Assembly: GCF_035084215.1 (NCBI RefSeq)
Contig: NC_090366.1
Location: forward strand, 3,596,001 to 3,660,000
Direction: 5' to 3'
Source: Heptranchias perlo
Lineage: Eukaryota
DNA: 64,000 nucleotides
Shown here: positions 25,686 through 53,822 of the stretch, piece after piece
Position numbering within the stretch: position 1 is the stretch's first letter
Layout: each line of letters begins with the position of its first letter
Notes under the pieces: model-generated
What the model was told of the DNA's origin: nothing
Databases searched by the model: none
Seen by the model: only the letters and a program-made list of their open reading frames with translations
Position numbers and translations under genes: made by a program

Positions 25686-26089
25686 CATACATGGGTCGAT
25701 TGGCTTCCGAGCCGTATTTCAATTCAGTCTCTCATCTTCAATTATCCCAGTTATTCAGGTATTCAAACTCCATTTTCAGGATTATCCAAATTAAGAGTCT
25801 TCTCAGAACATCGCCAGGAAAACAATCCCAGCAGCAGTCAGAGATAGCTGTAATAGCTGCTTTGTTGAACTGTATAATAAAGATAGAACTGAGCAAGTAT
25901 GAATTCAATGATGGACTGCAGCCCGCTACTGTTGTCGTGCGAGGCAACCTGACTTCATAAAGTGTCGAATTAATTTCGAAGATTCTCTTTTATTAAAGAT
26001 CGCAGTATACTTACACTGTTTTATATTAATCCCTTCCGATATTGAGGAAAACAAGGCAACTATAAACAAATCCGCTAAATCAGTGACAC

Positions 26090-26925: not shown

Positions 26926-27148
26926 TAATGTATTATTCCGATCGCAACTTTTAGTGAGTTAGTCGTCAGTTGCGGACTATACCTACTTAAATTATTCATT
27001 GGAATCCGTCCATACTTGCAGATGGATTTGGTATTCAACTGTCGAATGGAGCTAGTATTTGCTGACACTAACACCGTTCATTTAGTAGCGTGCCAGTGAC
27101 GGAAAAATCCAGCTATAGTAATTAAATTCCACGAAATGTCAGGATTAC

Positions 27149-27433
27149 CTGCTAAATTGTGTTGATATTTCCCGAAACTAACGCCGTGCTCGTTTGCTGC
27201 AACACATGAGATCTGGTTTCCAGTTCCAGTTGGGTGAGTCAATATCAGGGAGCTCTGCACCAAGTGACCATTCACTGCCCAGGAGATAACTTCATCTGAA
27301 CTGTTCCTCGTGACGTTTCTTCCATTGAGACCCCATGTGATATTTGCCGGGGGGTTGGCTCTGACACTGCAGGTACAATCAATCCCACTCTCACAAATGG
27401 TGCAATTCGGGCCTGATACTATTGAAGGTTTAT
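27149..27433 (-). CDS. Gene B exon: membrane-proximal Ig domain 4
   Basis: tttag|AT..GCAG|gtaatc, 285 nt; SGPNCTICESGIDCTCSVRANPPANITW...ISCVAANEHG. The C..CxC pattern recalls MAG d5 and the Siglec-5/10/11 proximal domains. Confidence 0.88.
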
Positions 27434-28048
27434 CTAAATAAAAATAAAAGAGTTCAGCTTCAATTAGTTTTCATCAAACAGTATGCAGTGTCTAAGTAGA
27501 ACCGATTTGGGCCTTTAGACTAACCAGAGAGGTTACTGCACAGCCGTGTTTAATTGGAGCCATACAAAGATACATTCATTTAATGGATCATCTGATTTTG
27601 CTTTTTGCTAAATTCTAACAATCAATAACTCAGTTATAAATTCTCATCGAACCAATAAGCGGTCATTTGATCAATTTATCTTCATGCTGTGGGCGATTAC
27701 CCAGTTAAAATATGGTAAACAATACAGACTAACTTACCTCAACTGTCTGTTCTGGTAAAACTGTTTGTATATAATGTTATCAATTTTTACCATTGTGATT
27801 GAATAACGTGTTCTTCCACTTCAGGCCTCTGGGATCAGTCTTCCCGCACATTAATTCTGGAGCTCCACATCACACATATTCATTAATTTGGTTTTAACCA
27901 GTCTGAGATACATTTTACCTGGTTTTGTGCAATGGGGTCTCTGGTTTTTAACGATGTTTTTTACCCGCTAAATGTGGTCAAATTCTCCTTCTTTTACTGG
28001 CTTTTCTGTGAATATTACTAACATCGGCTATTGAGAGAGTTGTGTGAA

Positions 28049-28233
28049 CACGGGGGAAATATCACCCATGCGTAGTCACTGTGCAACGGATCATTGATGT
28101 CCCTTTATACATTTAATAGATTCACACTGTACTTACGTTGTATAAAAATCTGTGTGGAGCTGTTTGCGGTCCCCTAGTTATCTCCAGCCATGCGCCAATG
28201 TTATATATATGTTACGTTTGATCCTCAACAGAA
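28049..28233 (+). repeat. Left arm of 185-bp inverted repeat flanking the Ig3 exon
   Basis: Aligns without gaps to the reverse complement of 28763-28947, e.g. ctgtacttacgttgtataaaaatctgtgt and agttatctccagccatgcgcca. Confidence 0.9.
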
Positions 28234-28397
28234 CCTGGTGTGAGGAAGATTAGCTTTCCAAATATCAATGAGATGAATAGGAAATGATTAACTCCAGTAC
28301 CAGTCTGCGAGTTTTGATGGTGATTGTTTATAACAGTGAATAACTTCAGTAAATTAATATAATAAAGAGAATGAACGTAGTTTCACACCGCACTTAC

Positions 28398-28655
28398 ATT
28401 GCACAGAAATCTGTGTGAAGCTCTTTGCGTTGCCTACGATATTTTCAGCAACGCACCAATATTGTCCGTCATCTTTAGAACTAATGTTGTGAAATATCTG
28501 CCTCAGTTCACCGGTGGAAGACATGCTGATCTCCGAACCATCTCTCACCCATCTTAAACTGACCGGTAGTTCACCCTGGGCCATGCAGTACAGTAATACT
28601 GAACTTCCTTCCACTGCTACTATCGAGGAATTGACGATTGGTTCCCGAGAGGCAG
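28398..28655 (-). CDS. Gene B exon: Ig domain 3 (C2/I-set)
   Basis: accag|CT..CAAT|gtaagt, 258 nt; VEGSSVLLYCMAQGELPVSLRW..DDGQYWCVAENIVG. Confidence 0.88.
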
Positions 28656-28762
28656 CTGGTAATGCGGAGGTCATTGGCGGTAAATGAGAATTCCAGCACA
28701 TAAGACAAAAAAAACAATTTAAGTGACAACCAGAGAGCAATATGTCGTGACTATTTTGTTAA

Positions 28763-28947
28763 TTCTGATGAGGATCAAACGTAACATAAATGTAAGAATG
28801 GCGCATGGCTGGAGATAACTTGGTCACTACAAACAGCTCAACACAGATTTTTATACAACGTAAGTACAGTTTCAATCTATTAAATGTATAAGGGGACATC
28901 AGTGATCCGTTCCACATTGACTACGTATGGGCGTTATTTCACTCGTG
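28763..28947 (-). repeat. Right arm of 185-bp inverted repeat
   Basis: Reverse complement of 28049-28233, roughly 85% identity by eye. Confidence 0.9.
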
Positions 28948-29618
28948 ATGTCTTATTCCTTCAGCTCATTTCAAACATAAGCATCTTTCCCCCTCTTGTC
29001 ATTAAAGATTTGTCTGTTTGCCCGGGTAAAGTTCTAGTCCAGCGTTACTTCAACAAAGTGAACATTCCTCCCAGAACAAGAACTTGGTCGACTTTCCCTT
29101 CCCTCACACAGGGATGTTGAGGCCAATTGTAGCATCTCGACCCAACCGCACCAGTTAATTCAAAACAGACACTCCTGCTCTGTATGATGCATTCAAGGGC
29201 AAGGTCGAGAAACACACGACAGTAAAAAGAATAGAAGGTCACGTTGATGGGATTGGATGTAGAGAAGTGGGAGAAGGATCATTTGGTGCATAAACGCCAG
29301 CACGAGCACGTTGGGCCGAATGGCCTGTTTTTGAGCTGTACATTTTATGTAATGTTAATCAGTTACTCTGTGGCAAAAACGGCATCTGGCATTGGGATCC
29401 ATTGGAATCATTTTGTACACAAACCACACCCGTGGAACCACCAATATTACTCCAATGGTTTGGGGAAAATATTAAGCAAAGGGACTGACAAGAATTAGGT
29501 CTTAGACAGTTCGATTAATTGATTTTCCAGTCGAGCTCTCACTACAATGAGAATAATAACAACTTCACAACCTGTTTACCAACAGGTTGGGTGAATCAAG
29601 CATAGAGCGGGTATTTAC

Positions 29619-29930
29619 ATTTACCGGCCAGTTAAAGAGTTTCTTGAACAGTAGCTTCGACACCTTCAACAATAAGTTTACACCCCAGCGTTTTCCCATG
29701 ATGGTCTGATGATGGGACGAATGTGAAAATGGATGAAACCCTCCGGGAATCATCGAAACCGTTGACATTTTGTTCGGAAGTTTTAGTCTCTGTCAGAAAA
29801 GGAAAGTAACCTTGATCATAAGTATACTTCAGCTCAAGGTTGGCGGATTCGCAACTGTGGGTGATCGAGCAGGTCAGTTGCGCTGGTTGTCCAGCGATCA
29901 ATTCCCCAGAGACTGATATACTTGGATTTT
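29619..29930 (-). CDS. Gene B exon: Ig domain 2, with in-frame TAA near its 3' end
   Basis: Paralog of 819-1130; QETL* where paralogs have ACA (Thr); the conserved C-strand Trp is also changed to Tyr. Confidence 0.88.
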
Positions 29931-30791
29931 CTGTAAGGAGAGAAGGAAATTACAGTGGATTTCAATTTTGAAAACGGCCAATGATGTGCCAGGCGATTCA
30001 ACCCAAATTCTGAGAAAATATCACCTTAAAAATGAATCCTGTTCTTTTCCGCCTGCTCTCAGCTGCAGGGAATAATGCCTAAACTTAATAACTTCTTAAA
30101 ATTACTGATCTCATCGGATCACATATGCACTCAGACGCTTTATCACATGAATTATTCACGTTATTGGCAGTGAATTAACTGCCACTCACACACTGCTTTG
30201 CTGGCAACTCAAAATGGTCTCTTCAAATATCAGCAACCATTAAACCCGCTCATGCCTCATTGGGTAAATTCATTATTTGATGTGATACTGAACCATTCGG
30301 CCAGCCCGGACCCACATTCTATCCCAAATCTGTATTTGGGATAGAATCCAGTACCTTTTTTGCGCGAACTGCTTCAAAGAAGCGATGGTTGGAGACAGTC
30401 CTGACTGACCCTAGAAATCCCTCCTGTGCTGAGACCATATCGACTCTACCCTTCCTACAGAATTAAAAACTTTGACTTCCTTTTGCGCTTCAATTATGTA
30501 TTTAAATTTGAACCGCCGGTCTGTACGTTTCAATACAACATCTAACATTGCACTTACCAACTGAACAACGCAGGGAGCTTCTGTAAGTTATTAAGAATAG
30601 CCCAGTGTCATATTTCTGTTCAAGATAATGCATAACACTCACCTGGGTAATATTCAGTGGAGGAGCCGTGCCGCTGTAACATGTGACGTAGGCCAAAAGT
30701 ATCACGAAATTTTTCAATTCAAGGCTTAAATTAAATGGCACTGAGGAGACGGAATATAAACTACAAAAGGAATAAATGAATAAAAACTTGC

Positions 30792-31172
30792 CTAAAATAG
30801 AAATATTGGCCTGCGATCTGGAAGTGTATTGTTCTGTAACATTCCGGGCAGCGGTGATCTTCGGTCTGAAGAAATAGTCACCATCATCGCTCTTCCTGAT
30901 ATCTTTTATCCGTAAGGAACATTGTTTCTTTGCAAAGTTGCCGTTCAACTCAGTTCGTCCCATATAATTAAGGCTTATATTGTCTGAACTTTTGAGATCA
31001 TAGACAATAAAGACCCTTCGGCTACTAGGATCATAACCCCCCTTAAACCACACACCCCATGGACTGTGACCATCGACTGCATAATCAAATGTACACGGGA
31101 GCTCTGCACATGAACCCTTCACTGCCGACACAAACCACGGCATCTTCACAGACCATCGTGAACTCTGGACAA
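30792..31172 (-). CDS. Gene B V-set exon (Arg retained; GC donor)
   Basis: 381 nt, GSCAELPC..CSLRI..DDGDYFFR; donor reads AG|gcaagt. Confidence 0.9.
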
Positions 31173-31549
31173 CTGATGAAAAATAGAAATTAAACACCCA
31201 ATGAAATACACAATAATTTTCTAATTAAAAAATTCCCTGCCATCCCAGATAAACACTATTAAATGACCCTTCTAACACCCACTGATATTTCCCTCTCCAT
31301 ATCCATTTAAACTCGTAAATTTCCAACTGCAAATTTTCCGTTAAAATGTCCTTTATTTCCCAATCAAACACATTAATAGTCAATTATCCTAACAATTTAC
31401 AGAATTCAGTTCAGAATATAATATACATTAAAAACCTTCTTCGCGAATTTACAAATCACGAACGATGTATTATTTCTATAACTAATTACTTTGTTATTTT
31501 GCCACAAGATGGAAATCGCTTGAGAGAATTATTAAAAATAATATTTTAC

Positions 31550-31592
31550 CTTCGCTAAATACCAGAATTAAAATAACATTTAGGCTCTTCAT
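31550..31592 (-). CDS. Gene B signal-peptide exon
   Basis: MKSLNVILILVFSE + G|gtaaaa, 43 nt. Confidence 0.8.
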
Positions 31593-34750: not shown

Positions 34751-34758
34751 TGTTGCAG

Positions 34759-37728: not shown

Positions 37729-38154
37729 TTTATTGGAGCGAATAGAAAATGTTAAAAAGTTGCACTGACGACTAAAGCCCGCCGCCGCTGTATTTCAGAC
37801 GCATGGTTAGAATGAAAACACGTGTGAAATTTTAAATCAAATATTCCAACAAACCGAATTGAACATTTTAGCAATTCATCTCCGAAAGATATCCATTTCC
37901 GCAGAGCTTCCCGAGTGTCAACTTTCTGCTCTACTCATCAAACTAGTTGCGTTAAGATATTGATGAGCTCCATTTGTCCAAAAGGAGTAAATGCCGAAGG
38001 ATTTCATTTAAATTCAATTGCGGCGTATTCACTGGATTCCTCATTCTGGAGATATTATTCCTGTTTGCGAAAGCTTCGAACATTGATCGCTGCGTACACA
38101 GTGATTGGATAGATGCATTCCTCCAACACCAATGTCTGTCTCTGGGCCTTGGCT
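37729..38154 (-). other. Gene C last exon: decayed ITIM exon, predicted to be 3'UTR now
   Basis: ttgcag|AGCCAAGGCC homologous to 19032; a net 17-nt loss puts TVYAAI and SEYAAI out of frame, with a TAA between them; AATAAA at 37734-37729. Confidence 0.7.
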
Positions 38155-40629
38155 CTGCAACAGAAAGCGGTGCGTTAGATATGGAGAGACTGGACCCTCT
38201 GAGAGTTAGCTTTCTGTACCAGAGTAAACGTCTTTATCCCATCTCTATGTGGACAGACTATTTCAACTAGATGGGTAAGGGAAAACAAGGGCCCATCATC
38301 GAAATACATAAAGGTAGTTTACATATCGGGAGGTTATTTTGTTCGGGCAAAGTGTCAATGATGCTTCGATCATCGATCTCTGCTGCCTTACTATGTTCCC
38401 ACTCAGTAACGAGAGCTTTTTGAGCTTTGCGTTGTACAAACATAAAAAAAGGCGGACAGGGAAAGTACCAACTGTCATGACGCTGGCGTTCTCTCCCACC
38501 ATCATGTAATCTCTCGCGAGATACAAAAAAAGAGATAAAAAGAACGAGGCCAATTCAGGGAAAAGAAATCCTTGCGGGGAGGTTTGCTAGCACTGTTGGG
38601 GGGTGGTGGGGTTAAACTAATTTTGCAAGGGGATGGGATACAGAGTGGAGCTACAATAGGGGGTGTTGTGCAGCCAAATATAGAGAAAAAAAAAATTCAG
38701 CTTGGAAGACAGGGCAAATATGTGAGGGCAAGGCTGGATGGCATCTATTTTAATGCAAGGAGTCTTGCGAATAAGGTGGATGAACTGAAGGTGTTGATAA
38801 ACACATGGGAGTATGATATTGTTGCTGTCACAGAGACATGGTTGAGGGAGGGGCAAGACTGGCTGCTCAATATTCCGGGGTACAGAATCTTCAGGCGAGT
38901 CAGAGGGGGAGGTATAAGAGGAGGGGGGTGGCAATATTAATTAAAGAATCAATTACTGCCATAAGGAGGGATGATATATTAGCAGGTTCCTCTAATGAGG
39001 CCATATGGGTGGAGCTTAAAAACAAAAAGGGGGCAAGCACTTTGATGGGAGTGTACTATAGGCCCCCAAACAGTCAGGGGGAGATAGAGGAACAGATATG
39101 TCGGCAAATCTCAGAAAATTGTGCAAATAATAGGGTAATAATAGTGGGGGATTTCAACTTCCCCAATATTAACTGGGATACTCAGAGTGTAAAAGGCTTA
39201 GAGGGTACAAAATTCTTAACGTGCATCCAGGAGAGCTTTTTGAGCCAGCATGTAGAAAGTCCTACAAGAGAGGGGGCGGTACTGGACATAATTCTAGGGA
39301 ATGTGGCCGGCCAAGTGGAAGAAGTGCTAGTAGGTGAACACTTTGGTGACAGTGACCATAATTCGGTGAGATATAAGGTGGTCATGGAAAAGGATAGCGA
39401 GGGGCCGGAAATAAAGGTTCTAAATTGGGGGAAGGCCGATTTTAATAGGATAAGGCAGGATCTGGCCAAAATGGACTGGGATCAGCTGCTTGTAGGAAAA
39501 TCCGCATCGGAGCAATGGGAGTCTTTCAGAAGGGAGATTGAGACCATACAATGGCAATATGTTCCCGTAAAGGTCAAGGGTGGTTCCAAGAACTCCAGGG
39601 AACCTTGGATGTCAGGGGATATACGAGAATGGATTAGGAAAAAAAGGACGGCTTTTGGCAGATACAAAAGGCTAAAGACGGAGGAAGCCCTAGAGGAGTA
39701 CAAAAAGTGCAGGGGGATACTTAAAAAAGAAATTAGGAGATCAAGGAGGGGCCATGAAATAACACTGGCGAGCAAAAGAAAGGAAAATCCTAAGATGTTT
39801 TATAAGTATATTAAGGGTAAGTGGATGACTAGGGGAAAAATAGGGCCCATTAGGGACAAAAATGGCAATCTGTGTGTGGAGCCGGCAGATGTAGGAGGGG
39901 TTCTAAATGAATTTTTTGCATCTGTTTTCACTATGGAGAAGGACGATGTAGACATAGAAATACGGCAGGGGGACTGTGATATACTCGAACATATTAACAT
40001 CGAGTGGGAGGAGGTATTGGCGCTTTTAGCAGGCCTAAAAATGGATAAATCCCCAGGCCCGGACGAAATGTATCCCAGGCTACTGTGTGAGGCAAAGGAG
40101 GAGATTGCGAGGGCTCTAACACAAATATTCAGAACCTCTCTGGCCACAGGGGATGTGCCAGAGGACTGGAGGACCGTTAATGTAGTACCATTATTCAAGA
40201 AGGGGAGTAGGGAAAAACCGGGGAACTGCAGGCCAGTGAGCCTAACATCAGTGGTAGGAAAATTATTGGAAAAAATTCTGAAGGACAAAATTAGTCTCCA
40301 CTTGGAGAAGCAAGGATTAATCAGGCATAGTCAACATGGCTTTGTCAAGGAACGATCATGTCTGACTAATTTGATTGAATTTTTTGAGGAGTTGACGAGG
40401 CGTGTGGATGAGGGTAACGCAGTGGATGTGGTACACATGGATTTCAGTAAGACCTTCGATCAAGTCCCCCACAGGAGACTGGTCAAGAAGGTACGAGACC
40501 ATGGAATCCAGGGTGCCTTGGCACTTTGGATACAAAACTGGCTTAGTGGCAGAAGGCAGAGGGTGATGTTCGAAGGTTGTTTTTGTGACTGGAAGCCTGT
40601 GGCCAGTGGGGTACCACAGGGATCGGTGC

Positions 40630-41164
40630 ACAGGAGGGCAGGAAAAAGAGTGGCAGAGCTATAGTGATAGGGGACTCGATTGTAAGGGGAATAGACAGGC
40701 GTTTCTGCGGACGCAACCGAGACTCCAGGATGGTATGTTGCCTCCCTGGTGCAAGGGTCAAGGATGTCTCGGAGCGGCTGCAGGACATTCTGGAGGGGGA
40801 GGGTGAACAGCCAGTTGTCGTGGTGCATATAGGCACCAACGATATAGGTAAAAAACAGGATGAGGTCCTACAAGCTGAATTTAGGGAGTTAGGAGTTAAA
40901 CTAAAGAGTAGGACCTCAAAGGTAGTAATCTCAGGATTGCTACCAGTGCCACGGGTTAGTCAGAGTAGGAATGACAGGATAGCTAAGATGAATACGTGGC
41001 TTGAGAGATGGTGCAAGCTGGAGGGATTCAAATTCCTGGGCCATTGGAACCGGTTCTGGGGGAGGTGGGACCAGTACAAATTGGACGGTCTGCATCTGGG
41101 CAGGACTGGAACCAATGTCCAAGGGGGAGTGTTTGCCAGTGCTGTTGGGGAGGGTTTAAACTAA
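40630..41164 (+). CDS. CR1 ORF1 C-terminal SGNH/GDSL esterase-like domain (partial)
   Basis: IGDSIVR, HIGTND and DGLHL blocks, characteristic of CR1 ORF1 esterase domains. Confidence 0.9.
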
Positions 41165-44112
41165 TGTGGCAGGGGGATGGGAACCGATGCAGGAAGCCAG
41201 TGGGAAATAAAGTGGTGACAGAAACAAAAGGCAGTAAGGGAGAGTGTACAGAACATGACCGGACAGATGGTCTGAGAAAGCAGGGCAAAGACCAAGGGAA
41301 GTCTAGATTAAACTGCATTTATTTCAATGCAAGAAGTCTGATGGGCAAGGCAGATGAACTCAGGGCATGGATGGGTACATGGGACTGGGATGTTATAGCT
41401 ATTACTGAAACATGGCTAAGGGAGGGGCAGGACTGGCAGCTCAATGTTCCAGGGTACAGATGCGATAGGAAAGATAGAGCAGGAGGTAAGATAGGAGGGG
41501 GAGTTGCGTTCTTGATTAGGGAGAACATCACGGCAGTAGTGAGAGGGGATATATCCGAGGGTTCGCCCACTGAGTCCATATGGGTAGAACTGAAAAATAA
41601 GAAGGGAGAGATCACTTTGATAGGATTGTACTACAGACCCCCAAATAGTCAACGGGAAATTGAGGAGCAAATATGTAAGGAGATTACAGACAGCTGCAAG
41701 AAAAATAGGGTGGTAATAGTAGGGGACTTTAACTTTCCCAACATTGACTGGGACAGCCATAGCATTAGGGGCTTGGATGGAGAGAAATTTGTTGAGTGTA
41801 TTCAGGAGGAATTTCTCATTCAGTATGTGGATGGCCCGACTAGAGAGGGGGCAAAACTTGACCTCCTCTTGGGAAATAAGGAAGGGCAGGTGACAGAAGT
41901 GTTAGTGAGGGATCACTTTGGGACCAGTGATCATAATTCCATTAGTTTTAAGATAGCTATGGAGAAGGATAGGTCTGGCCTAAAAGTTAAAATTCTAAAT
42001 TGGGGAAAGGCCAATTTTGATGGTATTAGACAGGAACTTTCAGAAGTTGATTGGGAGAGTCTGTTGGCAGGCAAAGGGACGTCTGGTAAGTGGGAGGCTT
42101 TCAAAAGTGTGTTAACCAGGGTTCAGGGTAAGCACATTCCTTATAAAGTGAAGGGCAAGGCTGGTAGAAGTAGGGAACCTTGGATGACTCGGGAGATTGA
42201 GGCACTAGTCAAAAATAAGAAGGAGGCATATGACATGCATAGGCAGCTGGGATCAAGTGGATCCCTTGAAGAGTATAGAGATTGCCGGAGTAGAGTTAAG
42301 AGAGAAATCAGGAGGGCAAAAAGGGGATATGAGATTGCTTTGGCAGATCAGGCAAAGGTGAATCCAAAGAGCTTCTACAAATACATAAAGGGCAAAAGGG
42401 TAACTAGGGAGAGAGTAGGGCCTCTTAAGGATCAACAAGGTCATCTAAGTGCGGAACCACAAGAGATGGGTGAGATCCTGAATGAATATTTGACATCGGT
42501 ATTTACGGTTGAGAAAGGCATGGATGTTAGGGAACTTGGGGAAATAAATAGTGATGTCTTGAGGAGTGTACATATTACAGAGAGGGAGGTGCTGGAAGTC
42601 TTATCGCGCATCAAGGTAGATAAATCTCCGGGACCTGATGAAATGTATCCCAGGACGTTATGGGAGGTTAGGGAGGAAATTGCGGGTCCCCTAGCAGAGA
42701 TATTTGAATCATCCACCGCGACAGGTGAGGTGCCTGAAGATTGGAGAGTAGCAAATGTTGTGCCTTTGTTTAAGAAGGGCGGCAGGGAAAAGCCTGGGAA
42801 CTACAGACCAGTGAGCCTGACATCTGTAGTGGGTAAGTTGTTAGAGGGTATTCTGATGGACAGGATCTACAGGCATTTGGAGAGGCAGGGACTAATTAGG
42901 AACAGTCAGCATGGTTTTGTGAGAGGAAAATCATGTCTCACGAATTTGATTGAGTTTTTTGAAGGGGTAACCAAGAAGATAGATGAGGGCTGTGCAGTAG
43001 ACGTGGTCTACATGGACTTCAGCAAAGCATTTGACAAGGTACCGCATGGTAGGTTGTTACATAAGGTTAAATCTCATGGGATCCAAGGTGAGGTAGCCAA
43101 TTGGATACAAAATTGGCTTGACGACAGAAGACAGAGGGTGGTTGTCGAGGGTTGTTTTTCAAACTGGATGCCTGTGTCCAGCGGTGTGCCTCAGGGATCG
43201 GTGCTGGGTCCGCTGTTATTTGTTATTTATATTAATGATTTGGATGAGAATTTAGGAGGCATGGTTAGTAAGTTTGCAGACGACACCAAGATTGGTGGCA
43301 TTGTGGACAGTGAAGAAGGTTATCTAGGATTGCAACGGGATCTTGATAAATTGGGCCAGTGGGCCGATGAATGGCAGATGGAGTTTAATTTAGATAAATG
43401 TGAGGTGATGCATTTTGGTAGATCGAATCGGGCCAGGACCTACTCCGTTAATGGTAGGGCGTTGGGGAGAGTTATAGAACAAAGAGATCTAGGAGTACAG
43501 ATTCATAGCTCCTTGAAAGTGGAGTCACAGGTGGATAGGGTGGTGAAGAAGGCATTCAGCATGCTTGGTTTCATTGGTCAGAACATTGAATGCAGGAGTT
43601 GGGATGTCTTGTTGAAGTTGTACAGGGCATTGGTGAGGCCACACTTGGAGTACTGTGTACAGTTCTGGTCACCCTATTATAGAAAGGATATTATTAAACT
43701 AGAAAGAGTGCAGAAAAGATTTACTAGGATGCTACCGGGACTTGATGGTTTGACTTACAGGGAGAGGTTAGACAGACTGGGACTTTATTCCCTGGAGAGT
43801 AGGAGGTTAAGGGGTGATCTTATAGAAGTCTATAAAATAATGAGGGGCATAGATAAGGTCGATAGTCAAAATCTTTTCCCAAAGGTAGGGGAGTCTATAA
43901 CGAGGGGGCACAGATTTAAGGTGAGAGGGGAGAGATACAAAAGGATCCAGAGGGGCAATTTTTTCACTCAAAGGGTGGTGAGTGTCTGGAACGAGCTGCC
44001 AGAGGCAGTAGTAGAGGCGGGTACAATTTTGTCTTTTAAAAAGCATTTGGACAGTTACATGGGGAAGATGGGTATCGAGGGATATGGGCCAAGTGCAGGC
44101 AATTGGGACTAG
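41164..44112 (+). CDS. CR1 ORF2: AP endonuclease + reverse transcriptase, uninterrupted (982 aa from the ATG at 41164)
   Basis: NARS, ITETW, GDFN, SDH (APE); KSPGPD, YRPVSL, DFSKAFD, GVPQGSVLGP, FADD (RT); TAATG stop/start overlap with ORF1. Confidence 0.95.
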   Translation: MWQGDGNRCRKPVGNKVVTETKGSKGECTEHDRTDGLRKQGKDQGKSRLNCIYFNARSLMGKADELRAWMGTWDWDVIAITETWLREGQDWQLNVPGYRCDRKDRAGGKIGGGVAFLIRENITAVVRGDISEGSPTESIWVELKNKKGEITLIGLYYRPPNSQREIEEQICKEITDSCKKNRVVIVGDFNFPNIDWDSHSIRGLDGEKFVECIQEEFLIQYVDGPTREGAKLDLLLGNKEGQVTEVLVRDHFGTSDHNSISFKIAMEKDRSGLKVKILNWGKANFDGIRQELSEVDWESLLAGKGTSGKWEAFKSVLTRVQGKHIPYKVKGKAGRSREPWMTREIEALVKNKKEAYDMHRQLGSSGSLEEYRDCRSRVKREIRRAKRGYEIALADQAKVNPKSFYKYIKGKRVTRERVGPLKDQQGHLSAEPQEMGEILNEYLTSVFTVEKGMDVRELGEINSDVLRSVHITEREVLEVLSRIKVDKSPGPDEMYPRTLWEVREEIAGPLAEIFESSTATGEVPEDWRVANVVPLFKKGGREKPGNYRPVSLTSVVGKLLEGILMDRIYRHLERQGLIRNSQHGFVRGKSCLTNLIEFFEGVTKKIDEGCAVDVVYMDFSKAFDKVPHGRLLHKVKSHGIQGEVANWIQNWLDDRRQRVVVEGCFSNWMPVSSGVPQGSVLGPLLFVIYINDLDENLGGMVSKFADDTKIGGIVDSEEGYLGLQRDLDKLGQWADEWQMEFNLDKCEVMHFGRSNRARTYSVNGRALGRVIEQRDLGVQIHSSLKVESQVDRVVKKAFSMLGFIGQNIECRSWDVLLKLYRALVRPHLEYCVQFWSPYYRKDIIKLERVQKRFTRMLPGLDGLTYRERLDRLGLYSLESRRLRGDLIEVYKIMRGIDKVDSQNLFPKVGESITRGHRFKVRGERYKRIQRGNFFTQRVVSVWNELPEAVVEAGTILSFKKHLDSYMGKMGIEGYGPSAGNWD

Positions 44113-44451
44113 CTTAGTGGTATAAACTGGGCGACATGGACATGTTGGGCCGAAGGGCCTGTTTCCATGTTGTAACTTCTATGATTCTATGATTCTATGA
44201 TTCTATGGGTCCCTTGCTGTTTGTGGTCTACATTAATGACTTGGATATGAATGTAAAAGGTATGATCAGTAAGTTCGCTGATGATACAAAAATTGGTAGG
44301 GTGGTAAATAGCGAGGAGGACAGCCTCAGTCTGCAGGACGATATAGATGGGTTGGTCAGATGGGCGGAACAGTGGCAAATGGAATTTAACCCGGAAAAGT
44401 GCGAGGTGATGCACTTTGGAGGGACTAACAAGGCAAGGGAATACACAATGA

Positions 44452-45220
44452 ATCATGGAATCATAGAATCATAGAAGTTACAACATGGAAACAGGCCCTT
44501 CGGCCCAACATGTCCATGTCGCCCAGTTTATACCACTAAGCTAGTCCCAATTGCCTGCACTTGGCCCATATCCCTCTATACCCAACTTACCCATGTAACT
44601 GTCCAAATGCTTTTTAAAAGACAAAATTGTACCCGCCTCTAGTACTGCCTCTGGCAGCTCGTTCCAGACACTCACCACCCTTTGAGTGAAAAAATTGCCC
44701 CTCTGGACCCTTTTGTATCTCTCCCCTCTCACCTTAAATCTATGCCCCCTCGTTATAGACTCCCCTACCTTTGGGAAAAGATTTTGACTATCGACCTTAT
44801 CTATGCCCCTCATTATTTTATAGACTTATATAAGATCACCCCTTAACCTCCTACTCTCCAGGGAAAAAAGTCCCAGTCTGTCTAACCTCTCCCTGTAAGT
44901 CAAACCATCAAGTCCCGGTAGCATCCTAGTAAATCTTTTCTGCACTCTTTCTAGTTTAATAATATCCTTTCTATAATAGGGTGACAAGAACTGTACACAG
45001 TACTCCAAGTGTGGCCTCACCAATGCCCTGTACAACTTCAACAAGACATGCCAACTCCTGCATTCAATGTTCTGACCAATGAAACCAAGCATGCCGAATG
45101 CCTTCTTCACCACCCTATCCACCTGTGACTCCACTTTCAAGGAGCTATGAATCTGTATTCCTAGATCTCTTTGTTCTATAACTCTCCCAACGCCCTACCA
45201 TTAACGGAGTAGGTCCTGGC
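44452..45220 (-). mobile_element. Second young CR1 copy (3' ~770 bp), inverted, nested in the host CR1
   Basis: Reverse complement almost identical to 43432-44206. Confidence 0.92.
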
Positions 45221-45954
45221 AAGACAGAGGTTCAGAGGGATCTTGGTGTGCAAGTTCACAGATCCCTAAAGGCGGCGGAACAGGTAGATAAGGTGGTAAA
45301 GAAGGCATATGGGATACTTGCCTTTATTAGCCGTGGCATAGAATATAAGAGCAAGGAGGTTATGATGGAGCTGTATAAAACACTGGTTAGGCCACAGCTG
45401 GAGTATTGTGTGCAGTTCTGGTCGCCACACTGCAGGAAGGATGTGATCGCTTTGGAGAGGGTGCAGAGGAGATTCACCAGGATGTTACCAGGGCTGGAGC
45501 GCTTCAGCTATGAAGAGAGACTGGGAAGATTGGGTTTGTTTTCCTTGGAGCAGAGGAGGCTGAGGGGGGACATGATTGAGGTGTACAAAATTATGAGGGG
45601 CACAGATAGGATGGATACGAAGGAGCTTTTTCCCTTCGTTGAGGGTTCTATAACGAGTGGACATAGATTCAAGGTAAAAGGCGGGAGGTTTAGAGGGGAT
45701 TTGAGAAAGAACTTTTTCACCCAGAGGGTGGTTGGAGTCTGGAACTCACTGCCTGAAAGGGTTGTGGAGGCAGGAACCCTCACAACATTCAAGAAGCATT
45801 TGGATGAGCACTTGAAATGCCATAGCATACAAGGCTACGGACCAAATGCTGGAATATGGGATTAGAGTAGACAGGGCTTGATGGCCGGCGCGGACACGAT
45901 GGGCCGAAGGGCCTCTATCCGTGCTGTATAACTCTATGACTCTATGACTAAATC

Positions 45955-46720
45955 TGGAAAATTTCTCTCTGAGCCCGAAGGTGAACGGAACGAGTTCCAG
46001 GAAATAACAGCGTCCATGAGATACATTACGCAACACCCCACTGGTGTTTTGTGTGCAGTCAAATTAGCCTCAGGAGGGAATTCGTTCAGTTCTCCTTTGA
46101 AATATTGCAGCGAAGTTACACTCGCCACATGAGCTGGCAACTTGATCCAAGCGTCTTTGACACTCTGCGACAAGATAAACGTCCCGATATCTAACCTGCC
46201 TTAAAGTTTATATCGCATTGTCCCTCGTTTTCCCTAACCTGTCGAGTTCAAATAATCTGTCCACACAGACACAGTCTAGTTCCTTCGTAATTTAAAAGAG
46301 AATTTCAATTAAATTGCTCCTTAGCCGACACTTTTCTGGAGTAAAAGGTCACAGCTCACTCGGGCAAGGGCACTTAAGGGCTTTTAAACCAGGTATCTCT
46401 CGGATGGCCCTCCGCTGAACCTTCTTTCAGGTACTCGACCTCACCCATCGCGTGAGGGGACCAAAACTGGACACAGTATTCCAAATGAGGCATAACCAGC
46501 GCCTTTATAAAGACTGTAAAGCTACTTTTCTTTTATTTTACACTGTTTCACCCTCACTAACCATCCAAGTATTCTATTATCCTTTGCAATGGCCTTTTCG
46601 CACTGGTCGTGCACATTCAGTGACTCGTGTACTGTAACACTTACATCACCTTCCCGCTCAATAGATTTTAATTCTCTACTCAGCATGGTATATACATATT
46701 TGATGTTAGCCCTACGTATT
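45955..46720 (-). mobile_element. Old CR1-like element, split by the host CR1 (other piece at ~38430-38570)
   Basis: W.KLP..V..FKGELNEFL-like RT terminus; the 3'UTR continues across the aaatc junction and resembles 14590-14700. Confidence 0.55.
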
Positions 46721-47156
46721 GGTCGGAAGAACGAGGAGCGGCAATATAAAGTAAATGATACAGTTTATAAGAGGGTGCAGGAACAGAGAGACATAGGAAC
46801 ATCAAAAAGATTGGAACAGGATTAGTGCAATCGCCCCCTCGAGCCTGTTCCGCTATTCGATGAAACATTGGCTGCTCCGTATCGTGACGTGGGAAAGATG
46901 TTTTTTGAGACCGTTTGATTTCAATAGAAATCCCAAACAGAGAAAATGTCAATGATTCCAATTACCAGGTCATGGCACACAGTGAGCATTTCAACACTTC
47001 CCTGTTAGCGGGTTGAGGGGAGCATTCCATCCTTTATAACAAGTTTCTGTAACACCTGTTTAACATTTGGATTGTGCATTTAATGTGACTCCCATAAACC
47101 AAACATCAGACAGATAACTCCAGCGGATTCTCAACAGATTCGATGTCCTCACATAC

Positions 47157-47239
47157 CTCAGTTAAATGGGCTCCGAACCAGAAGGCAAGTCATCGAGCCG
47201 CTGCCTGTAGGAGGGACACCAACAGGGACATTTAACATT
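47157..47239 (-). CDS. Gene C cytoplasmic exon ending in a stop 1 nt before the donor
   Basis: Aligns codon by codon with 21358-21271; ancestral cag acceptor is now caa, with AGs 1 and 3 nt downstream; RMLNVPVGVPPTGSGSMTCLLVRSPFN* g|gtatgt. Confidence 0.6.
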
Positions 47240-50200
47240 CTCTTGATTCAAAAAATACAAATGCTGTCTATCACGTAATTACTGGTAATTAGTTTTAATA
47301 AATCATCCAGTGTCCGTATGGTGAATCACGCGCGTGCACTATCGCAGCAGCGATTTGTTATCATAGTGGCCTTGTAGGTAGAGCACAGGAGGAGACCATT
47401 CGGCCCAGCGGGCCTGTGCCACCTCTTTGAAAGAGCTATCCAATTAGTCACATTCCACTGCTCTTTCCCCATTGCCCTGGATTTTTTTTCCTTCAAGTAT
47501 TTATCCAATTCGCCTTTGAAAGTTATTATTGAATTTGCTTCCACCGCCCTTTCAAGCGGAGCATTCCAGATCATAACAACTCGCTGCGGAAAAAAATATT
47601 TCCTCATGTCACTTCTTTTGCCGATCACCTTAAATCTATGTCCTCTGGTTACCGACCCTTCTGCCACTGGAAACAGTTTCTCCTTATTTACTCTGTTAAA
47701 ACCGTTCATGATCTTGAACACCTCCATCAAATCTCCCCTTAACCTTCTTTCTTCTGAGGAGAACAATCCCAGCTTCTCCAGTCTCTCCACATAACTGAAC
47801 TCCCTCATCCATTGGACTTCCTTGATTAGATGGAACCATATTTCAGTTCCGTTCGCTTTCTATCTCTACACTGCCATAATCCTTAAGGAACGTTTCTCTC
47901 GATCTGATAAAGTAGGTAAATTCTATCGTCATCTGCTTTGACATTCCCAAATTTAGTGTTCACTGTACAGTTTCTGAATGGTCGACTGAGCGCCGGCGAC
48001 TGATGCAAAGTATCTATTTGAAATCACATGTCCTAAACGTTGGCGTGAGTTTGCCCTGCAGTGTCCTGGAATGGCTCTGTGGAGTTTTTTTGTTATTACC
48101 TCCTGAGTCCTGAGTTTTCGATTGGCGTTTGTTTTAAGAACTTTGAACTTACAAGTGAAAGAGCTACGAACGCGCCATGGTCCAGAGTGGAGTTATTCTG
48201 GTCTATTACCAGAGCTGGGAGAAGGGATACACCGATCAGGGTCGATTGACACTCGGATATTGCCCTACTTTCACCACAGATTCACCCGACCTCCATTAAC
48301 CCTTCCCTCCACAACTGGTAGCTAACATTGATGTGCAATGCTTTCAGGTTTTAAGTATTTTAAGAAATATTTTCTCATAGGCTGAAATCCTGATGTCACA
48401 GTCCCTTTGAAATCTGTCTGACTAATTCATGAGTGTAAATAATTGTAAATCATACCTGTATGAATTCCTCTCTATCTTCACCATGGAAATGGCAGCAATC
48501 AGAATGAAAACTGCGACCGCTGTTCTTATTGCCATGACAATTTTCCATGAAATTGTTCCTAAAATATTCAGAAAAAAAGACCTTGCTGCTGACTATTGTA
48601 CTAAGATTACAACACGGTGTTCGGATAGCATTTATCCTCAAGTACCGGAATCTGTAAAGAAAGAACTCGCACTTCACGCCATCCCAAAGCGCTTTACAGC
48701 CAATGAAGTACTGCTGAAAAGTAGCCACTGTTGTAATGCAGGGAACGCGGCAGCCAAATTGCGCATGGGAAGATCCCACAAACAGCGATGAGGTAATGAC
48801 CTCGTGATCTGTTTTTAGTGATGTTGGTTGAGCGATAAATATTGGCCAAGACGCAAGGCGAGAATTTCCCTGCTCTTATTCCAAAGATTAAACAGTACAG
48901 TTTCGAAGTGCAGTCCCAGGAGGGTGTATATGCACATATTGTATCCTCGGATCTGTTTCCGTCCTATCCAATATTTCAATTCAGTCTGTAATCTGCTTTT
49001 TTCCAATTATCCCAGGTATTCTGGCTCCATTTGCAGGATTATCGCACTTTATATTCTTCTCAGAATATCGTCACGGTAACAATCCGAGGAGCAATCTGAA
49101 CTAGACATAAGAACTGCTTCATTAAACTGTGCGAACAGGATGGAACAGAGCTTGTATCAATTGACTGATAGACAGCAGCACGCAACGGTTACAGTGAGAG
49201 GAAACAGGACTTCATACAGCGTGTAATTAATTCAGCAGGTTCCGTTTTGTTGAAGATCGCACGCTACTTCTATTGTTGTATATTAATCCCTTCCGAACTC
49301 AACAAAATCCAGGCATCAGTAAACCTTGGCCGGGTTATGGAAAATCATTGACAAATTTAAAATGGATTATTCCGATTGCAACTTTCAGTGCGTCATTGGT
49401 CGGTGAGGGGCCAGACCCCTTTAGTTCTGAAATTATCCGTCGATTCTGTACTAAATTACTGGTGGATTTGGCAATTAACTGCCAAATGGAGCTGGTATTT
49501 GCTGACGCTAACACCGTTCACCTAATGACGGGCCAATAATCAAAGAACCTTTCTACAGTAATTAAATTGCTGCAAATATCAGGACTTACCTGCTGAATGG
49601 AGTTGATGTTTGCCGAAAGTAACGCCGTGCTCGTTTGCTGCAACACATGAGATCTGGTTTCCAGTACGAGTTGGGTGAGTCAGTGTCAGGGAGTTCGGCA
49701 CCAGGTGACCATTCACTGCCCAGGAGATAACTTCATCTGAACTGTTCCGAGTGATGGTTCTTCCATTGAGACCCCATGTGATATTTGCCGGGGGGTTGGC
49801 TCTGACACTGCAGGTACAATCAATCCCACTCTCAGAAATGGTGCAGTTCGGGCCTGATACTACTGAAGGTTTATCTAAAAAAAAGAGGCAATTTCAACTT
49901 CAGGTAGTTTTCATCAAGCAGTTTGCAGTGTCTAAGTAGAACCGATTTGGACCTTTAGACTAACCAGAGAGGTTACTGCACAGCCGTGTTTAATTGGAGC
50001 CATACAAAGATACATTCGTTTAATGGATCATCAGATTTTGCTTTTTGCGAAATTCTAGCAATCAATAACTCAGTTATAAGTTCACATCGAACCAATGAGC
50101 GGTCATTTGATCCATTTATCTTCATGCTGTGGGCGATTACTCGGTTAGAATACTGTAAACAATACAGACTAACTCACCTCAACTGTCCGTTCTGGTAAAA

Positions 50201-53200
50201 CTGTTAGTATTTAATCTTATAAACTTCTACCTTTGTGATTGACTAACGTGTTCTTCCACTTCAGGGCCGCTGGGATCAATCCCCCGCACATTAATTCTTG
50301 CGTTTCACATCTCACATATTCATTAATTTTGTTTTAACCAGTCCAGATACATTTTACGTGGTTTTGTGCATTGGGCTCTCTGGTTTTTAACGATGTTTTT
50401 TCACTCTAAATATGGTCAAATTCTCCTTCTTTTACTGGCCTTCCTGAAAATATTACTGACATCGGCTATTGAGAGAGTTGTGTGAACACGGGGGAAATAA
50501 CACCAATGCGTAGTCACTGTGGAGCGGATCTCTGATGTCCCTTTTAACATTTAATAGATTCACACAGTACTTACGTTGTATAAATGATATAATGTTAATC
50601 AGTTACTCTGTGGCTAAAACGGTAATCTGGCATTGGGATCCTTTGGAATAATATTGGACATAAATCACACCCGAGGAACCACCAGCATTACTCCAATGGT
50701 CTGGGAAAAATTTTAATCAGAGTGACTGACAAGAATTAACTGATAGACAGTCCTTTTAATTGATTATCCAGTCTCGGTCTCACTACATTGAGCATAACAA
50801 CAACTTTAGAACCTGTTTATCAACAAGCTAGTTGAATCAAGCATAGAGCGGGTATTTACATTCAACGGCCATTGTAAGTGTTTTCTGAACAGTAGCTTCG
50901 ACACCTTCAACTATAAGTTTACATCCCAGCGTTTTCCCATGAATGTCCGAGGATGGGACGAAGGTGAAAATGGATGAAACCCTCCGGTAACCATCGAAAC
51001 CGTTGACATTCTGTTCTGAAGTTTTAGTCTCTGTCTGAAAAGGAAAGTGTCCTTGATCATAAGTCCACTTCAGCTCAAGGTTGGCGGATGGGCAATTGTG
51101 GGTGATCGAGCAGGTCAGTTGCGCTGGTTGTCCAGCGATCAATTCCCCAGAGACTGATATACTTGTTTTTTCTGTAAGGGGAGAAGGAAATTATAGTGAA
51201 TTTCAATTTTGAAAACGGCCAATAATGTGCCAGGCGATTCAACCCAAGGACTGGGAAAATATCACCTTAAAAATGAATCCTGTTCTATTCCTCCTGCTCT
51301 CAGCTGCAGGGAATGATGCCTCAAGTCAATTACTCCTTACAATTACTGAACTAATCGGATCACATATGCACTCAGCCGCTTTATCACATGAATTATTCAC
51401 GTTATTGGCCAGTGAATTAATTTCCACTCACCCCCACTACGTTGCTGACAATTCAAAATGAGCACTTCAAATATCAGCAAGCATTAAACCCGCTCATGTC
51501 CTCATTGGGTAAATAAATTGCTTGATGTGATACTGTACCATTAGGCCAGCCCGGTCCCACATTCCATCCCAAGTCTGTGGCTGGGATAGAACCTGGTATC
51601 TTCTTTGCCCGAACTGCTTCAAAAAACGATGGCTGAAGATAGTCCTGACTGGGAACCGAGAGCCTGATACAATCTTACGGGAGGAAACAACAAACAGGCC
51701 TGTCCTGAAAAAGTCATGCAGTCTTCAGCGGAAATATCATGCTGGTGGTGTGCGATGGAATCAATAATTAAATCAGAATTGGAAATCCGGTCAATTGTCG
51801 CGTAGGCATTAGGTTATTAAATATTGAAAGACAAATCTCAGTCCCAAACCTGCGGGGACTCGGGAAGGTCTCTGTAAAACTTAATCTGTCGGTGATGAGG
51901 AAGCGAAAATTGTGAACTTATATTGTTTAATAATCGGAGAAAGGGACAAATTTAGTAGTTTTAGGTGACTGGGAGTTGCCCTGTGGGTTTCACCACCCAT
52001 CGGTCATTAGGTATTTTGGGAAATTTATTTGTTGAAAATTGTACTTGGACGATTGGAAATTGGTCCTTATTGGCCTTTTCTTTATTATGATAATGGACTT
52101 AAAATTATCACTTGGGATAATAACAGAAGACGTTTCTGTCTAATTTCTTGCCACGCCGTTTTAGTGAGCTTTTCTCCATCTATTCTACACGGGTTAACAT
52201 TTCAGCTAAACCTAAGCATTCAAAGGCTCCAAGTGCATGGTTTAATTTGGCGGCCCGTGAGCTCTTTAACGAATTTGTTTGAGTCGGGTTACTGGGATAA
52301 ATAACCCGCAGTCGTTATTCATGCACTCTTTATGACCTGCGCGGTGTGACAATTCATGGAAAAACGTACAAAGAGACGCGTCCATCTGACTCCCATTGGG
52401 ACTATTCAAGGTAAAGCAGGGATGTTCTCCCCGCTGTCTTGGCCAAAATATATCCACCAAGAAACTCCTAAAAACAGATTACCTGATCATTATCTCATTG
52501 CTGTTTGAGAGACCTTGCTGTGCGACAATTGGCTGGGGGATTTTCTACATTACACAAATCATTACGCTTCAAAGTACTTCATTGGCTGTAAAGCTTATTG
52601 GGATGTCCTGATATTTGAAACTCCCGATATCAATTCAATCTTTATTTTTTATTCCTTTATGATATGGAGACCTATAGGTGATTTGACCCTAGAAATCCCT
52701 CCCGTGTTTAAACCATGTCCACCTTCCCTTCCATCAGAATTGCAAACGATGACTTACTTTTGCGCATCAATTATGGATTGAAGTTTGACCCGCCGGTCTG
52801 TACGGTTGCACTTACTAACTGAACAACGCAGGGCGCTTCTGTAAGTTTTTAAGAATACCAATGCCATTTTTCAACTCAAGTCAAGTATTATTCAATGGAC
52901 CAGCCCGGCAGCTGTCGCCAGTGACGAAGGCCAAAAGTATCACGATAACTTTGCATCCGTGGTTTAAATTAAATGGCACTGAGGAGACGGAATATAAACT
53001 ACAAAAAGAACAAATGAAAAAATCTTACCTAAAATATAAAGACTGACGTGAGATGCGGATGTGTTTTGTTCTATACTATACTGGGATTTGCTGATCTTCG
53101 GTCTGAAGTAATAGTCACCTTCATCACTCTTCCTGATATCTTTTATCCGTAAGAAACATTGTTTCCTTGCAAAGTTGCCGCTCAACTCAGTTCGTCCTCG

Positions 53201-53822
53201 ATAATTAAAGTTTATTTTGTCTAAATCTCGGGGATCATGGACAATAAAGACCGCATGGCTTCTAGGGTCAGAACCCCCCTTCAACCACATACCCCATGGA
53301 CTGTGGCCATAGACGGGATAATCAAATGTACACGGGATCTCTGCACATGAACCTTTCACTGCCGACACAAACCACGGCATCTTCACAGACCATCGTGAAC
53401 AAAGGACAACTGATGAAAAATAGAAATTAAACACCCATTGAAATCCCTAATAACATATCAATTGAAACATTCCATGGCATTCCAGCTAAATACTGTTAAA
53501 AATAACCTTTAAACATTCACGAACATATTCATTAGTACGTCTATTAAAGCGTGTGAAATTATCACTAAAACTCTTTAAATTCCATCAAAATGTCGATTAC
53601 AGTCGAAGAAAACAGAAATATTCAAAAAATATCCTACTAAAATACAGAATAAAAGTCCGAATACAATGTACCTTAAATACCCACTTCTGAATTTACAAAC
53701 CACTAAATAACCATATACGATTTGTATCACTAATTACCTTGTTACTTTGCCACATAAGTTGTTAAAAAGAATATTTTACCGTTGCTAAATAGCAGGATGA
53801 AAATAACCTTAATGCTCTTCAT
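47158..53822 (-). CDS. Siglec-like gene C, putative activating type (V + 2 C2 + Arg-TM + short tail), ~401 aa
   Basis: Exons 53822-53780, 53409-53029, 51171-50860, 49874-49590, 48558-48456 and 47239-47158 join in frame (1206 nt) without internal stops; the acceptor of the last coding exon is the least certain part. Confidence 0.8.
47380..47810 (-). mobile_element. CR1 LINE 3' fragment
   Basis: ERLEKLGLFS.E.RRLRGDL..TRGHRFKV..QRVVMIWN. Confidence 0.88.
48456..48558 (-). CDS. Gene C transmembrane exon with intramembrane Arg
   Basis: ttttag|GA..AG|gtatga, 103 nt; GTISWKIVMAIRTAVAVFILIAAISMVKIERNSYR. Confidence 0.85.
49590..49874 (-). CDS. Gene C membrane-proximal Ig exon
   Basis: Intact 285-nt paralog of 27149-27433, GT-AG. 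Confidence 0.88.
50860..51171 (-). CDS. Gene C Ig domain 2 exon
   Basis: Intact 312-nt paralog of 819-1130. Confidence 0.9.
53029..53409 (-). CDS. Gene C V-set exon (Arg retained)
   Basis: 381 nt; GSCAEIPC..CFLRI..DEGDYYFR; GT-AG. Confidence 0.92.
53780..53822 (-). CDS. Gene C signal-peptide exon
   Basis: MKSIKVIFILLFSN + G|gtaaaa, 43 nt. Confidence 0.8.

Follow-up and report, generated by a model that had tools for sequence, protein, structure and literature searches.

The combination of a short tail, a charged transmembrane (TM) residue and an ITAM adaptor is a known receptor design, as outlined in the accessible sections of one source (PMC13358205). In the primate pairs SIGLEC5/SIGLEC14 and SIGLEC11/SIGLEC16, as the available parts of three papers describe them, a V-set sialic-acid domain with an essential Arg is accompanied by C2 domains, gene conversion homogenises the ectodomain up to a boundary where the Ig exons end, and an ITIM-bearing receptor is set against a short-tailed partner, with frequent null copies (PMC5701461, PMC6288428, PMC13358205). 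Gene C, part of a tandem array of Siglec-like genes in the shark Heptranchias perlo, resembles these pairs in all these respects, and its presence in a shark implies an origin independent of theirs. The primate pairs, however, are described in the accessible material as using DAP12, whereas the TM Arg of gene C is N-terminal and of the kind that pairs with FcR-gamma/CD3-zeta in other receptors; unlike them, it also keeps its decayed ITIM exons attached, and its module may span shark superorders.

Activating KIR and Ly49 receptors, according to the available part of one source, likewise arose from inhibitory ancestors by gaining a TM charge and losing ITIMs, and their signalling module spreads by recombination, as appears to hold for gene C; the charge-first order that we infer for C was proposed there for rat Ly49s3, and macaque KIR3DH lost its ITIMs via a splicing change (PMC2213150). 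The same part presents activating KIR and Ly49 as young (10–31 My) and short-lived, and they differ from C in ectodomain and ligand (PMC2213150). An Arg near the TM N-terminus and a short tail, as in C, are found in LILRA2, PIR-A, NKp46, GPVI, OSCAR, Fc-alpha-R and Xenopus XFL TM1, and such an Arg couples to FcR-gamma through the motif NxxR, as far as the accessible text goes (PMC2413239). Gene C differs in lacking the Asn of this motif (it has M-A-I-R, which counts against coupling) and in having a TM exon derived from a Siglec-like inhibitory exon, not from TM1. Among cartilaginous fish, skate MDIRs are also multigene activating/inhibitory Ig receptors, but in the available portion of the source they are CD300/TREM/pIgR-like, whereas C is Siglec-like (PMC3031540). 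Our literature searches, in which most subscription journals lay outside coverage, found no paper on activating shark Siglecs.

The array and the gene C protein

The window, i.e. the whole analyzed stretch of 64,000 nt, contains the tandem array (Table 1), and the DNA lesions described for gene C are present in its sequence. Gene A shares 92% (V) and 94% (C2a) DNA identity with C. Gene B is probably itself broken, as it has a TAA (29634-32) in C2a, a GC donor after V and a middle exon that has lost its Tyr. The Arg-TM pseudogene has no C2 or middle exons, and its last exon is frameshifted by lesions of its own. The RefSeq model over gene C misannotates it as a three-gene chimera named hemicentin-1-like (XP_067831274.1), in which the C Ig exons are joined to the C2c-TM-tail of B and the TM exon of C is skipped.

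Table 1. Positions in the window of gene C features and of neighbouring genes
Feature	Position	Strand	Remarks
Gene A, 5' part	819..3603	-	ITIM-type per RefSeq model; closest ectodomain relative of C
Arg-TM pseudogene	13908..15597	-	V holds two stops; TM ends in TAG
Gene B	18865..31592	-	ITIM-type neighbour of C
C, old ITIM exon (426 nt)	37729..38154	-	acceptor AG kept, exon start 38154
C, old ITIM exon motifs	TVYAAI 38102-085; TAA 38057-55; SEYAAI 38033-16	-	tyrosine motifs split by TAA
C, old ITIM exon end	old stop 38006-04; AATAAA 37734-29	-	
C, intron (9002 nt)	38155..47156	-	2238 nt in gene B; enlarged by retroelement insertions
C, middle exon as used (48 nt)	47157..47204	-	new reading frame; phase 2 in and out
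C, dead 5' part of old middle exon	47205..47245	-	old acceptor CAG now CAA (47245-43)
C, TM exon	48456..48558	-	I-R-T-A motif; Arg codon 48526-24
C, membrane-proximal Ig exon (C2c)	49590..49874	-	joint to TM in X5, X6, X7
C, gap site	50584..50587	-	~1.2 kb with gene B's third Ig exon missing; self-BLAST breakpoints
C, second Ig exon (C2a)	50860..51171	-	joints in X5, X6
C, V-set exon, Siglec type	53029..53409	-	spliced joint 53029/51171 in X5, X6
C, signal-peptide exon	53780..53822	-	ATG, GT donor; N-terminus of XP_067831274.1

Gene C has an open frame of 388 codons and encodes a 388-aa receptor with three Ig domains, a TM Arg and a 21-residue tail without ITIMs; no third-Ig match was found in the gene. 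The V domain scored above the cut-off for Pfam V-set and Ig_CD22, and the 18 best of its 25 PDB matches were Siglecs, led by sialoadhesin (E 1.5e-14), whose Trp, Arg and Cys positions were aligned. The essential F-strand Arg is kept (YYFR against YNFR in sialoadhesin), as is the Siglec cysteine pattern, with three Cys in register with those of sialoadhesin that presumably have the same disulfide roles as in Siglecs. Two further Ig exons, which fell below Pfam cut-offs, and a type I TM complete the architecture, and by sequence gene C is Siglec-like. As expected of the activating half of a receptor pair, it has a basic TM residue (Arg at position 6 of the best 21-residue hydrophobic window) and, in the contigs, a short ITIM-free tail, while gene A, with its ITIM tail in the RefSeq model and 92–94% DNA identity, offers an inhibitory partner.

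Splicing, the early stop and the old ITIM exon

The sequencing runs all derive from one sample, and their contigs show presence only and drop rare forms. None of the runs listed is on record as RNA; a computed guess classed four of them as RNA, and three of these were used. Four GT..AG joints were found at predicted exon limits in contigs of the probable RNA runs, whereas the DNA run had no such joint. C2c was spliced to gene C's own Arg-TM exon, in which the RNA contigs had 0 other letters. In 3/3 probable RNA runs and 0/1 DNA run, the TM exon was joined to a new AG at 47206-05, which makes 47204 the exon start (joint 48455/47203, cut +1, GT..AG). Contigs X5 and X7 cover C2c, C's own TM and the middle exon without a break. 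A search of short fragments with the C2c exon gave 0 of 2 candidates. The TM exon is 12 nt longer (48467-48456) than the donor position of gene B would make it, and the GT of that donor reads GA in both gene C and the pseudogene. Read-through of the TM exon as a terminal exon has a possible frame, but the contigs splice at 48456. An assembly error was also considered and set aside, as DNA and RNA contigs of the same sample listed no indel or other letter at the TM or middle-exon lesions.

A first-pass annotation of the window had placed the middle-exon start at 47241 or 47239; neither had a joint among those listed in these contigs, which drop rare forms. In a 47241 form the stop would lie 75 nt upstream of the junction, and NMD could degrade such a transcript. 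With the exon starting at 47204, the stop of gene C as spliced is TAA 47164-62, 5 nt before the donor. The TGA 1 nt before the donor GT at 47156, previously read as the end of the frame, is present (47160-58) and arose by a 2-nt deletion relative to gene B, but its frame needs the 47239 acceptor and is unused in the observed joint. Stops within ~50 nt of the last exon junction escape NMD, and the earlier expectations of such a stop and of a stable mRNA agree with what was found, the transcript being spliced and assembling as the main contig.

The contigs leave through the 47156 donor with 227 nt (X5) or 378 nt (X7) beyond it, both of which fit the 426-nt last exon, and from these lengths we infer that the old ITIM exon comes next and likely serves as the 3'UTR. 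It has kept its acceptor and AATAAA, as had been described. A TAA does split its tyrosine motifs, but these have kept the coding frame. The middle exon begins and ends in phase 2, and a phase-2 translation of the last exon continues for 32 codons without a stop and includes TVYAAI, so the motifs simply lie downstream of the stop. The last 48 coding nt of this exon were identical to gene B at 45/48 positions, and differences in the last-exon block fell 6/3/5 by codon position, i.e. the third-position excess is absent. An ITIM-tailed ancestor of gene C is supported.

Mosaic ancestry and Arg-TM forms in other sharks

Gene C and inhibitory gene B were 85–93% identical over the ectodomain and 63–80% over the TM/tail region. 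Up to the last Ig exon identity was 91–93%, and beyond it about 75% or less; it fell from 93% in C2c to 74% over the next 230 nt, so that the gene-conversion tract ends, on its 3' side, where the C2c exon ends. Introns considered on their own gave the same picture (644/709 identical inside the tract vs. 481/644 outside; Fisher p 1.5e-15). In these alignments the step is the gene-conversion signature of Siglec-5/14, the ectodomain was probably copied from inhibitory neighbours by gene conversion, and gene C is a mosaic of an ectodomain homogenised with inhibitory paralogs and a TM/tail module that diverged much earlier. The TM Arg and the 12-nt exon extension predate gene C, and the step-by-step conversion within gene C that had been proposed is not supported.

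TM identity was 79% between C and the pseudogene, 69% between C and B and 60% between B and the pseudogene, in line with the earlier view that the activating (Arg) lineage duplicated. The pseudogene at 14–16 kb does share the same I-R-T-A TM, but its tail carries different lesions (16 nt net, EEVL codons kept) from that of C (17 nt net, EEVL codons lost), so the two frameshifted tails do not count as a shared derived character. The dN/dS comparison suggested by the first-pass annotation, run against paralogs A and B, gave 0.39–0.58 for the C2 exons and 0.8–1.4 for V, with 1.49 for the TM of C and the pseudogene, values that rest on 7–10 synonymous changes, involve a comparator (B) that is a likely pseudogene and come from a region where conversion erases signal.

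Mustelus and Cetorhinus likewise have forms with an Arg in the TM and no ITIM, and in each case near-identical inhibitory ectodomains exist alongside (C2c 82/86 identical to its own ITIM paralog in Mustelus, and 81/95 to a Carcharodon ITIM form in Cetorhinus). Their Arg lies in the same alignment column as that of gene C, in F-P-I-R and L-P-I-R contexts instead of NxxR, and their TM region ends in N-S-H-R (C: N-S-Y-R), a place taken by an RKK-type basic run in ITIM forms; the Arg column and the N-S-x-R extension are common to Squalomorphii and Galeomorphii. In the Ig tree, C grouped with its own ITIM paralogs (99/97). The TM alignment rejected this grouping (p-AU 0.0024), also without the Arg column and extension (p-AU 0.0037), and these tests reject a recent derivation of C's TM from the genes beside it. 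The alignment lends weak support to one ancient Arg clade: cross-order support was 66/66 after dropping the trait columns and four long rows, and the raw TM identity of C was 9–10/29 to the Mustelus and Cetorhinus Arg forms and 14/27 to some ITIM forms. The membrane part of C may date back to the divergence of the main shark lineages. Among the proteins with a C2c match of ≥35% (HMMER, representatives, a set crowded by long multi-Ig proteins) no further Arg-TM forms were found. The same set included one Lys-TM short-tailed form (P0079).

Predicted signalling and alternative explanations

Building on the exon chain, new acceptor, early stop, Arg and mosaic identity established above, we put at roughly 0.6 the probability that gene C is an activating member of a paired-receptor set, with an Arg TM and an ITIM-free tail. 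Relative to its inhibitory neighbours it is likely the activating counterpart, with presumed activation and predicted adaptor binding, and would signal via an ITAM adaptor of the FcR-gamma/CD3-zeta type. The Arg-TM exon would have come from an inhibitory gene long ago, losing the old donor and gaining a 4-codon extension; the ITIM exons would then have decayed separately in C and in the pseudogene, which suggests that the Arg came first and ITIM decay later. Gene conversion or recombination would hold C's V to C2c close to the inhibitory paralogs, the matched ectodomains would let both receptors see the same sialylated ligands, and a microbe that binds the inhibitory receptors would activate C, in the manner of Siglec-14 and -16. 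The old ITIM exon would be retained as terminal exon and source of the poly(A) signal, with the nearby stop allowing escape from NMD. We offer only tentatively the wider proposal of an ancient shark activating Siglec module, in which gene conversion has repeatedly supplied one Arg-TM exon, predating the squalomorph–galeomorph split, with the inhibitory ectodomain current at the time, and in which the adaptor is not DAP12 but either CD3-zeta or an ancestral one of the FcR-gamma/zeta-like type.

It seems improbable that C's TM gained its Arg by a recent, local switch, step by step within the sevengill lineage, with convergent Arg forms in other sharks. In favour of this reading, activating KIR and Ly49 have as a rule originated repeatedly and independently (PMC2213150), the Arg clade goes unstarred without the trait columns, and the Arg of Scyliorhinus torazame sits in a different column, common to Lys/Arg+ITIM forms, which makes at least one separate origin likely; the near-identity of the ITIM exon ends of C and B fits as well. 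Against these points stand the identity step between ectodomain and TM/tail, the rejected grouping of C with its own ITIM paralogs and the traits common to both superorders. We consider it equally improbable that gene C, though expressed, is a decoy that does not signal, or is a copy in decay, with its Arg tolerated near the outer membrane edge: birth and death are rife (an in-frame stop interrupts B, and the second Arg copy is a pseudogene), NxxR is absent and dN/dS is weak, but the frame is open through five coding exons and the TM, with all lesions in the tail, the essential Arg and cysteines are intact, and Arg and ITIM loss recur together in other sharks.

Least probable of all is a dual-function gene, in which a minor isoform skips the middle exon and regains a TVYAAI tail, or the C ectodomain splices to the ITIM tail of B. 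A joint of the TM exon to the last exon would be in frame and run into the ITSM-type motif TVYAAI, and the RefSeq model makes just such a C-to-B join; however, a frame match has a chance of 1 in 3, and contigs X5 and X7, of a kind that drops rare forms, run unbroken through C's own TM.

If gene C is the activating twin, the Siglec 'counter-trap' design, in which inhibitory and activating twins are kept alike by gene conversion, would extend to cartilaginous fish, with a TM chemistry unlike that of the primate pairs. The ancient module, if true, would be a long-lived exception to the short life of activating paired receptors and a handle on the ITAM adaptor of innate receptors before bony fish. 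Because the FcR-gamma chain was not found in cartilaginous fish in one survey (PMC4016189), a result that also weighs against the activating reading, gene C is a concrete receptor with which to ask for the innate ITAM adaptor of sharks. RefSeq annotation hides genes of this kind, and the NCBI names of relatives are inconsistent, ranging over MAG-like and Siglec-5/8/12/13/14.

The receptor array and its annotation

In the window, Ig-receptor genes stand in tandem on the minus strand, interspersed with retroelements, and four copies are present: gene A (5′ part only), a pseudogene with an arginine in its transmembrane segment (Arg-TM), gene B, and gene C. We regard gene C as a real, expressed and mis-annotated gene, most likely encoding a predicted activating paired Siglec-like receptor (probability roughly 0.6). 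Its V exon has 100% identity to a segment of RefSeq XP_067831274.1 from Heptranchias perlo, a hexanchiform shark; this model is a chimera that runs from the Ig exons of C into the membrane-proximal Ig (C2c)-TM-ITIM tail of B and then into A, skipping the TM of C. The V domain belongs to the Siglec type: it matches Pfam V-set and Ig_CD22, Siglecs make up the best 18 of its 25 PDB matches, and the Trp, essential Arg and cysteines of sialoadhesin align with it.

The ITIM neighbour, gene B, has an in-frame TAA (29634-29632) at the end of its second Ig exon (C2a), a GC donor after V (30791) and a middle exon without Tyr, and is probably a null or secreted allele. RefSeq XP_067831353.1, an isoform of another paralog, skips the TM, reads its tail exons in a different frame and might encode a secreted form. 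Upstream of each of A, B and C lie the same two degenerate tandem arrays, with units of 49-50 nt and 24 nt respectively, which could serve as recombination substrates. The 1035-codon frame in the last intron of C reads like a LINE endonuclease/reverse transcriptase. The Gag-like and protease-like frames are apparently an LTR retroelement.

Repeat arrays and retroelement frames in the window
Feature	Positions	Strand
Tandem-array pair upstream of A	5640-8475	
Tandem-array pair upstream of B	31789-34753	
Tandem-array pair upstream of C	55779-58667	
ORF1-like frame, upstream of the 1035-codon frame	40589-41161	+
1035-codon open frame, gene C last intron	41005-44109	+
Partial inverted copy (97%)	44433-45220	
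Gag-like frames, zinc-knuckle-like Cys/His motif, protease-like frame	60233-61864	+

Transcripts and tail of gene C

Eight runs contained the stretch, all from one sample and four of them guessed to be RNA; three of the four probable RNA runs (X5, X6, X7) and one of the four DNA runs were compared over 45950-55400. The GT..AG joints V/C2a and C2a/C2c were present in X5 and X6 contigs, C2c/TM and TM/middle in all three, and none of the four in the DNA run compared, thus the contigs represent spliced RNAs. The first-pass annotation had described a TM Arg, a TGA 1 nt before the middle-exon donor, and a last exon with acceptor, split tyrosine motifs and AATAAA, all of which are present in the sequence. 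Its middle-exon start (47241 or 47239) has to be replaced, as the contigs join the TM to a new acceptor at 47204, 38 nt into the old middle exon (pyrimidine tract 0.75 vs. 0.60-0.65), leaving 388 open codons and a TAA stop (47164-62) 5 nt ahead of the donor. Nor are the tyrosine motifs out of frame, as it had proposed: in the frame used, the last exon reads through TVYAAI, and the motifs lie behind the stop. Two changes had gone unnoticed: the position at which B has its donor reads GA in C as well as in the pseudogene, and the old middle-exon acceptor went from CAG to CAA in C. The donor after the TM of C lies 12 nt beyond that used by B; a 12-nt insertion ahead of a kept donor would fit as an alternative.

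The donor at 47156 is used, since X5 depth falls from 218.9 (47176) to 3.3 (47145). By subtraction from record lengths, the contigs hold a further 227 or 378 nt outside the compared stretch, which by length fits, but does not prove, the old ITIM exon (426 nt). If that exon is last, the 50-55 nt rule for NMD escape predicts that an mRNA with its stop 5 nt before the junction would escape. Skipping of the middle exon would, from its sequence, expose an ITSM-type motif (TVYAAI; consensus given as TxYxxI/V, PMC13358205), and no TM-to-last-exon joint was seen in gene C contigs of the three probable RNA runs. The DNA run also contained a second version of 47066-47228 at lower depth; its 7 differences spare the TAA, and it represents another copy of the Arg lineage, or another haplotype, lying outside the window.

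Mosaic structure and the Arg-TM lineage

Identity of C to B is 85% in V, 91% in C2a and the intron before C2c, and 93% in C2c, then 74% in the next intron, 69% in the TM, 63% in the middle exon, 80% in the last coding part and 71% in the 3′UTR. The step lies at the C2c exon end (introns only, inside vs. outside the tract: Fisher p 1.5e-15), much as SIGLEC11/16 similarity is reported to end at the last Ig exon (PMC5701461). The signal-to-V intron of C reaches only 74-75% (A/B 89%) and C/A identity returns to about 90% further upstream, so the homogenised tracts are patchy. X7 contigs differ from C at 0 positions in the TM, 7 in C2c and 6 in C2a; some variant letters match B, most do not, and the variant marks a second allele or copy. 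The last 48 coding nt match B at 45/48 (binomial 8e-4 against 75%, for a window picked afterwards), which may stem from late constraint or a short conversion.

C and the pseudogene have the Arg and altered donor in common, but each has its own last-exon lesions (net 17 vs. 16 nt, in different places), so the ITIM exon would have decayed twice after duplication, charge coming first and motif loss later. The same order has been proposed for rat Ly49s3 (PMC2213150). Among 40 relatives (21 chondrichthyan by name), the gene predictions Mustelus asterias XP_078093181.1 (12-residue tail, accession adjoining its ITIM paralog, contigs of equal length) and Cetorhinus maximus XP_078392811.1 combine an Arg TM with no ITIM; a third predicted Arg, within a chimeric Scyliorhinus torazame model, occupies a different alignment column, in common with two basic-residue-plus-ITIM forms. 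The trees exclude duplicate isoforms, models lacking a TM and the more distant matches. Five Arg rows grouped at 97/94 in the TM tree (29 rows), and each Arg form grouped with same-species or same-order ITIM forms in the C2c tree (28 rows; 99/97, 100/99, 100/99). Constraining the Arg forms together was rejected on C2c (1.8e-56 with four rows, 0.044 with three; groups chosen post-tree), and placing C with its own ITIM paralogs was rejected on the TM alignment (p-AU 0.0024). With the Arg column, extension and four long rows removed, this was still rejected (0.0037), and C, the pseudogene, Mustelus and Cetorhinus lay on one side of a branch at only 66/66. The TM of C is thus supported as older than the local ITIM paralogs. 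One Arg-TM origin before the Squalomorphii/Galeomorphii split is plausible, helped by the common N-S-x-R extension. Selection tests on C were weak. In Heterodontus and Heptranchias there are also Siglec-like proteins whose TM starts with Arg or Lys and whose tail has an ITIM, possibly dual forms; several proteins of this subfamily lack the essential V-set Arg.

Probable paired design and candidate adaptors

The activating/inhibitory Siglec design is well established in primates, and skate has paired Ig receptors of its own (MDIR; PMC3031540); our literature search found no report of an activating paired Siglec-like receptor in a shark. ITAM adaptors are described as recruited by a short tail plus TM charge (PMC13358205), and N-terminal Arg TMs as using FcR-gamma through NxxR (PMC2413239). 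The TM of C does not have the Asn of this motif, and a 2014 survey of older assemblies reported that cartilaginous fish have no FcR-gamma (PMC4016189); the candidate adaptor would therefore be CD3-zeta or else a gamma/zeta chain of ancestral type (PMC4536121).
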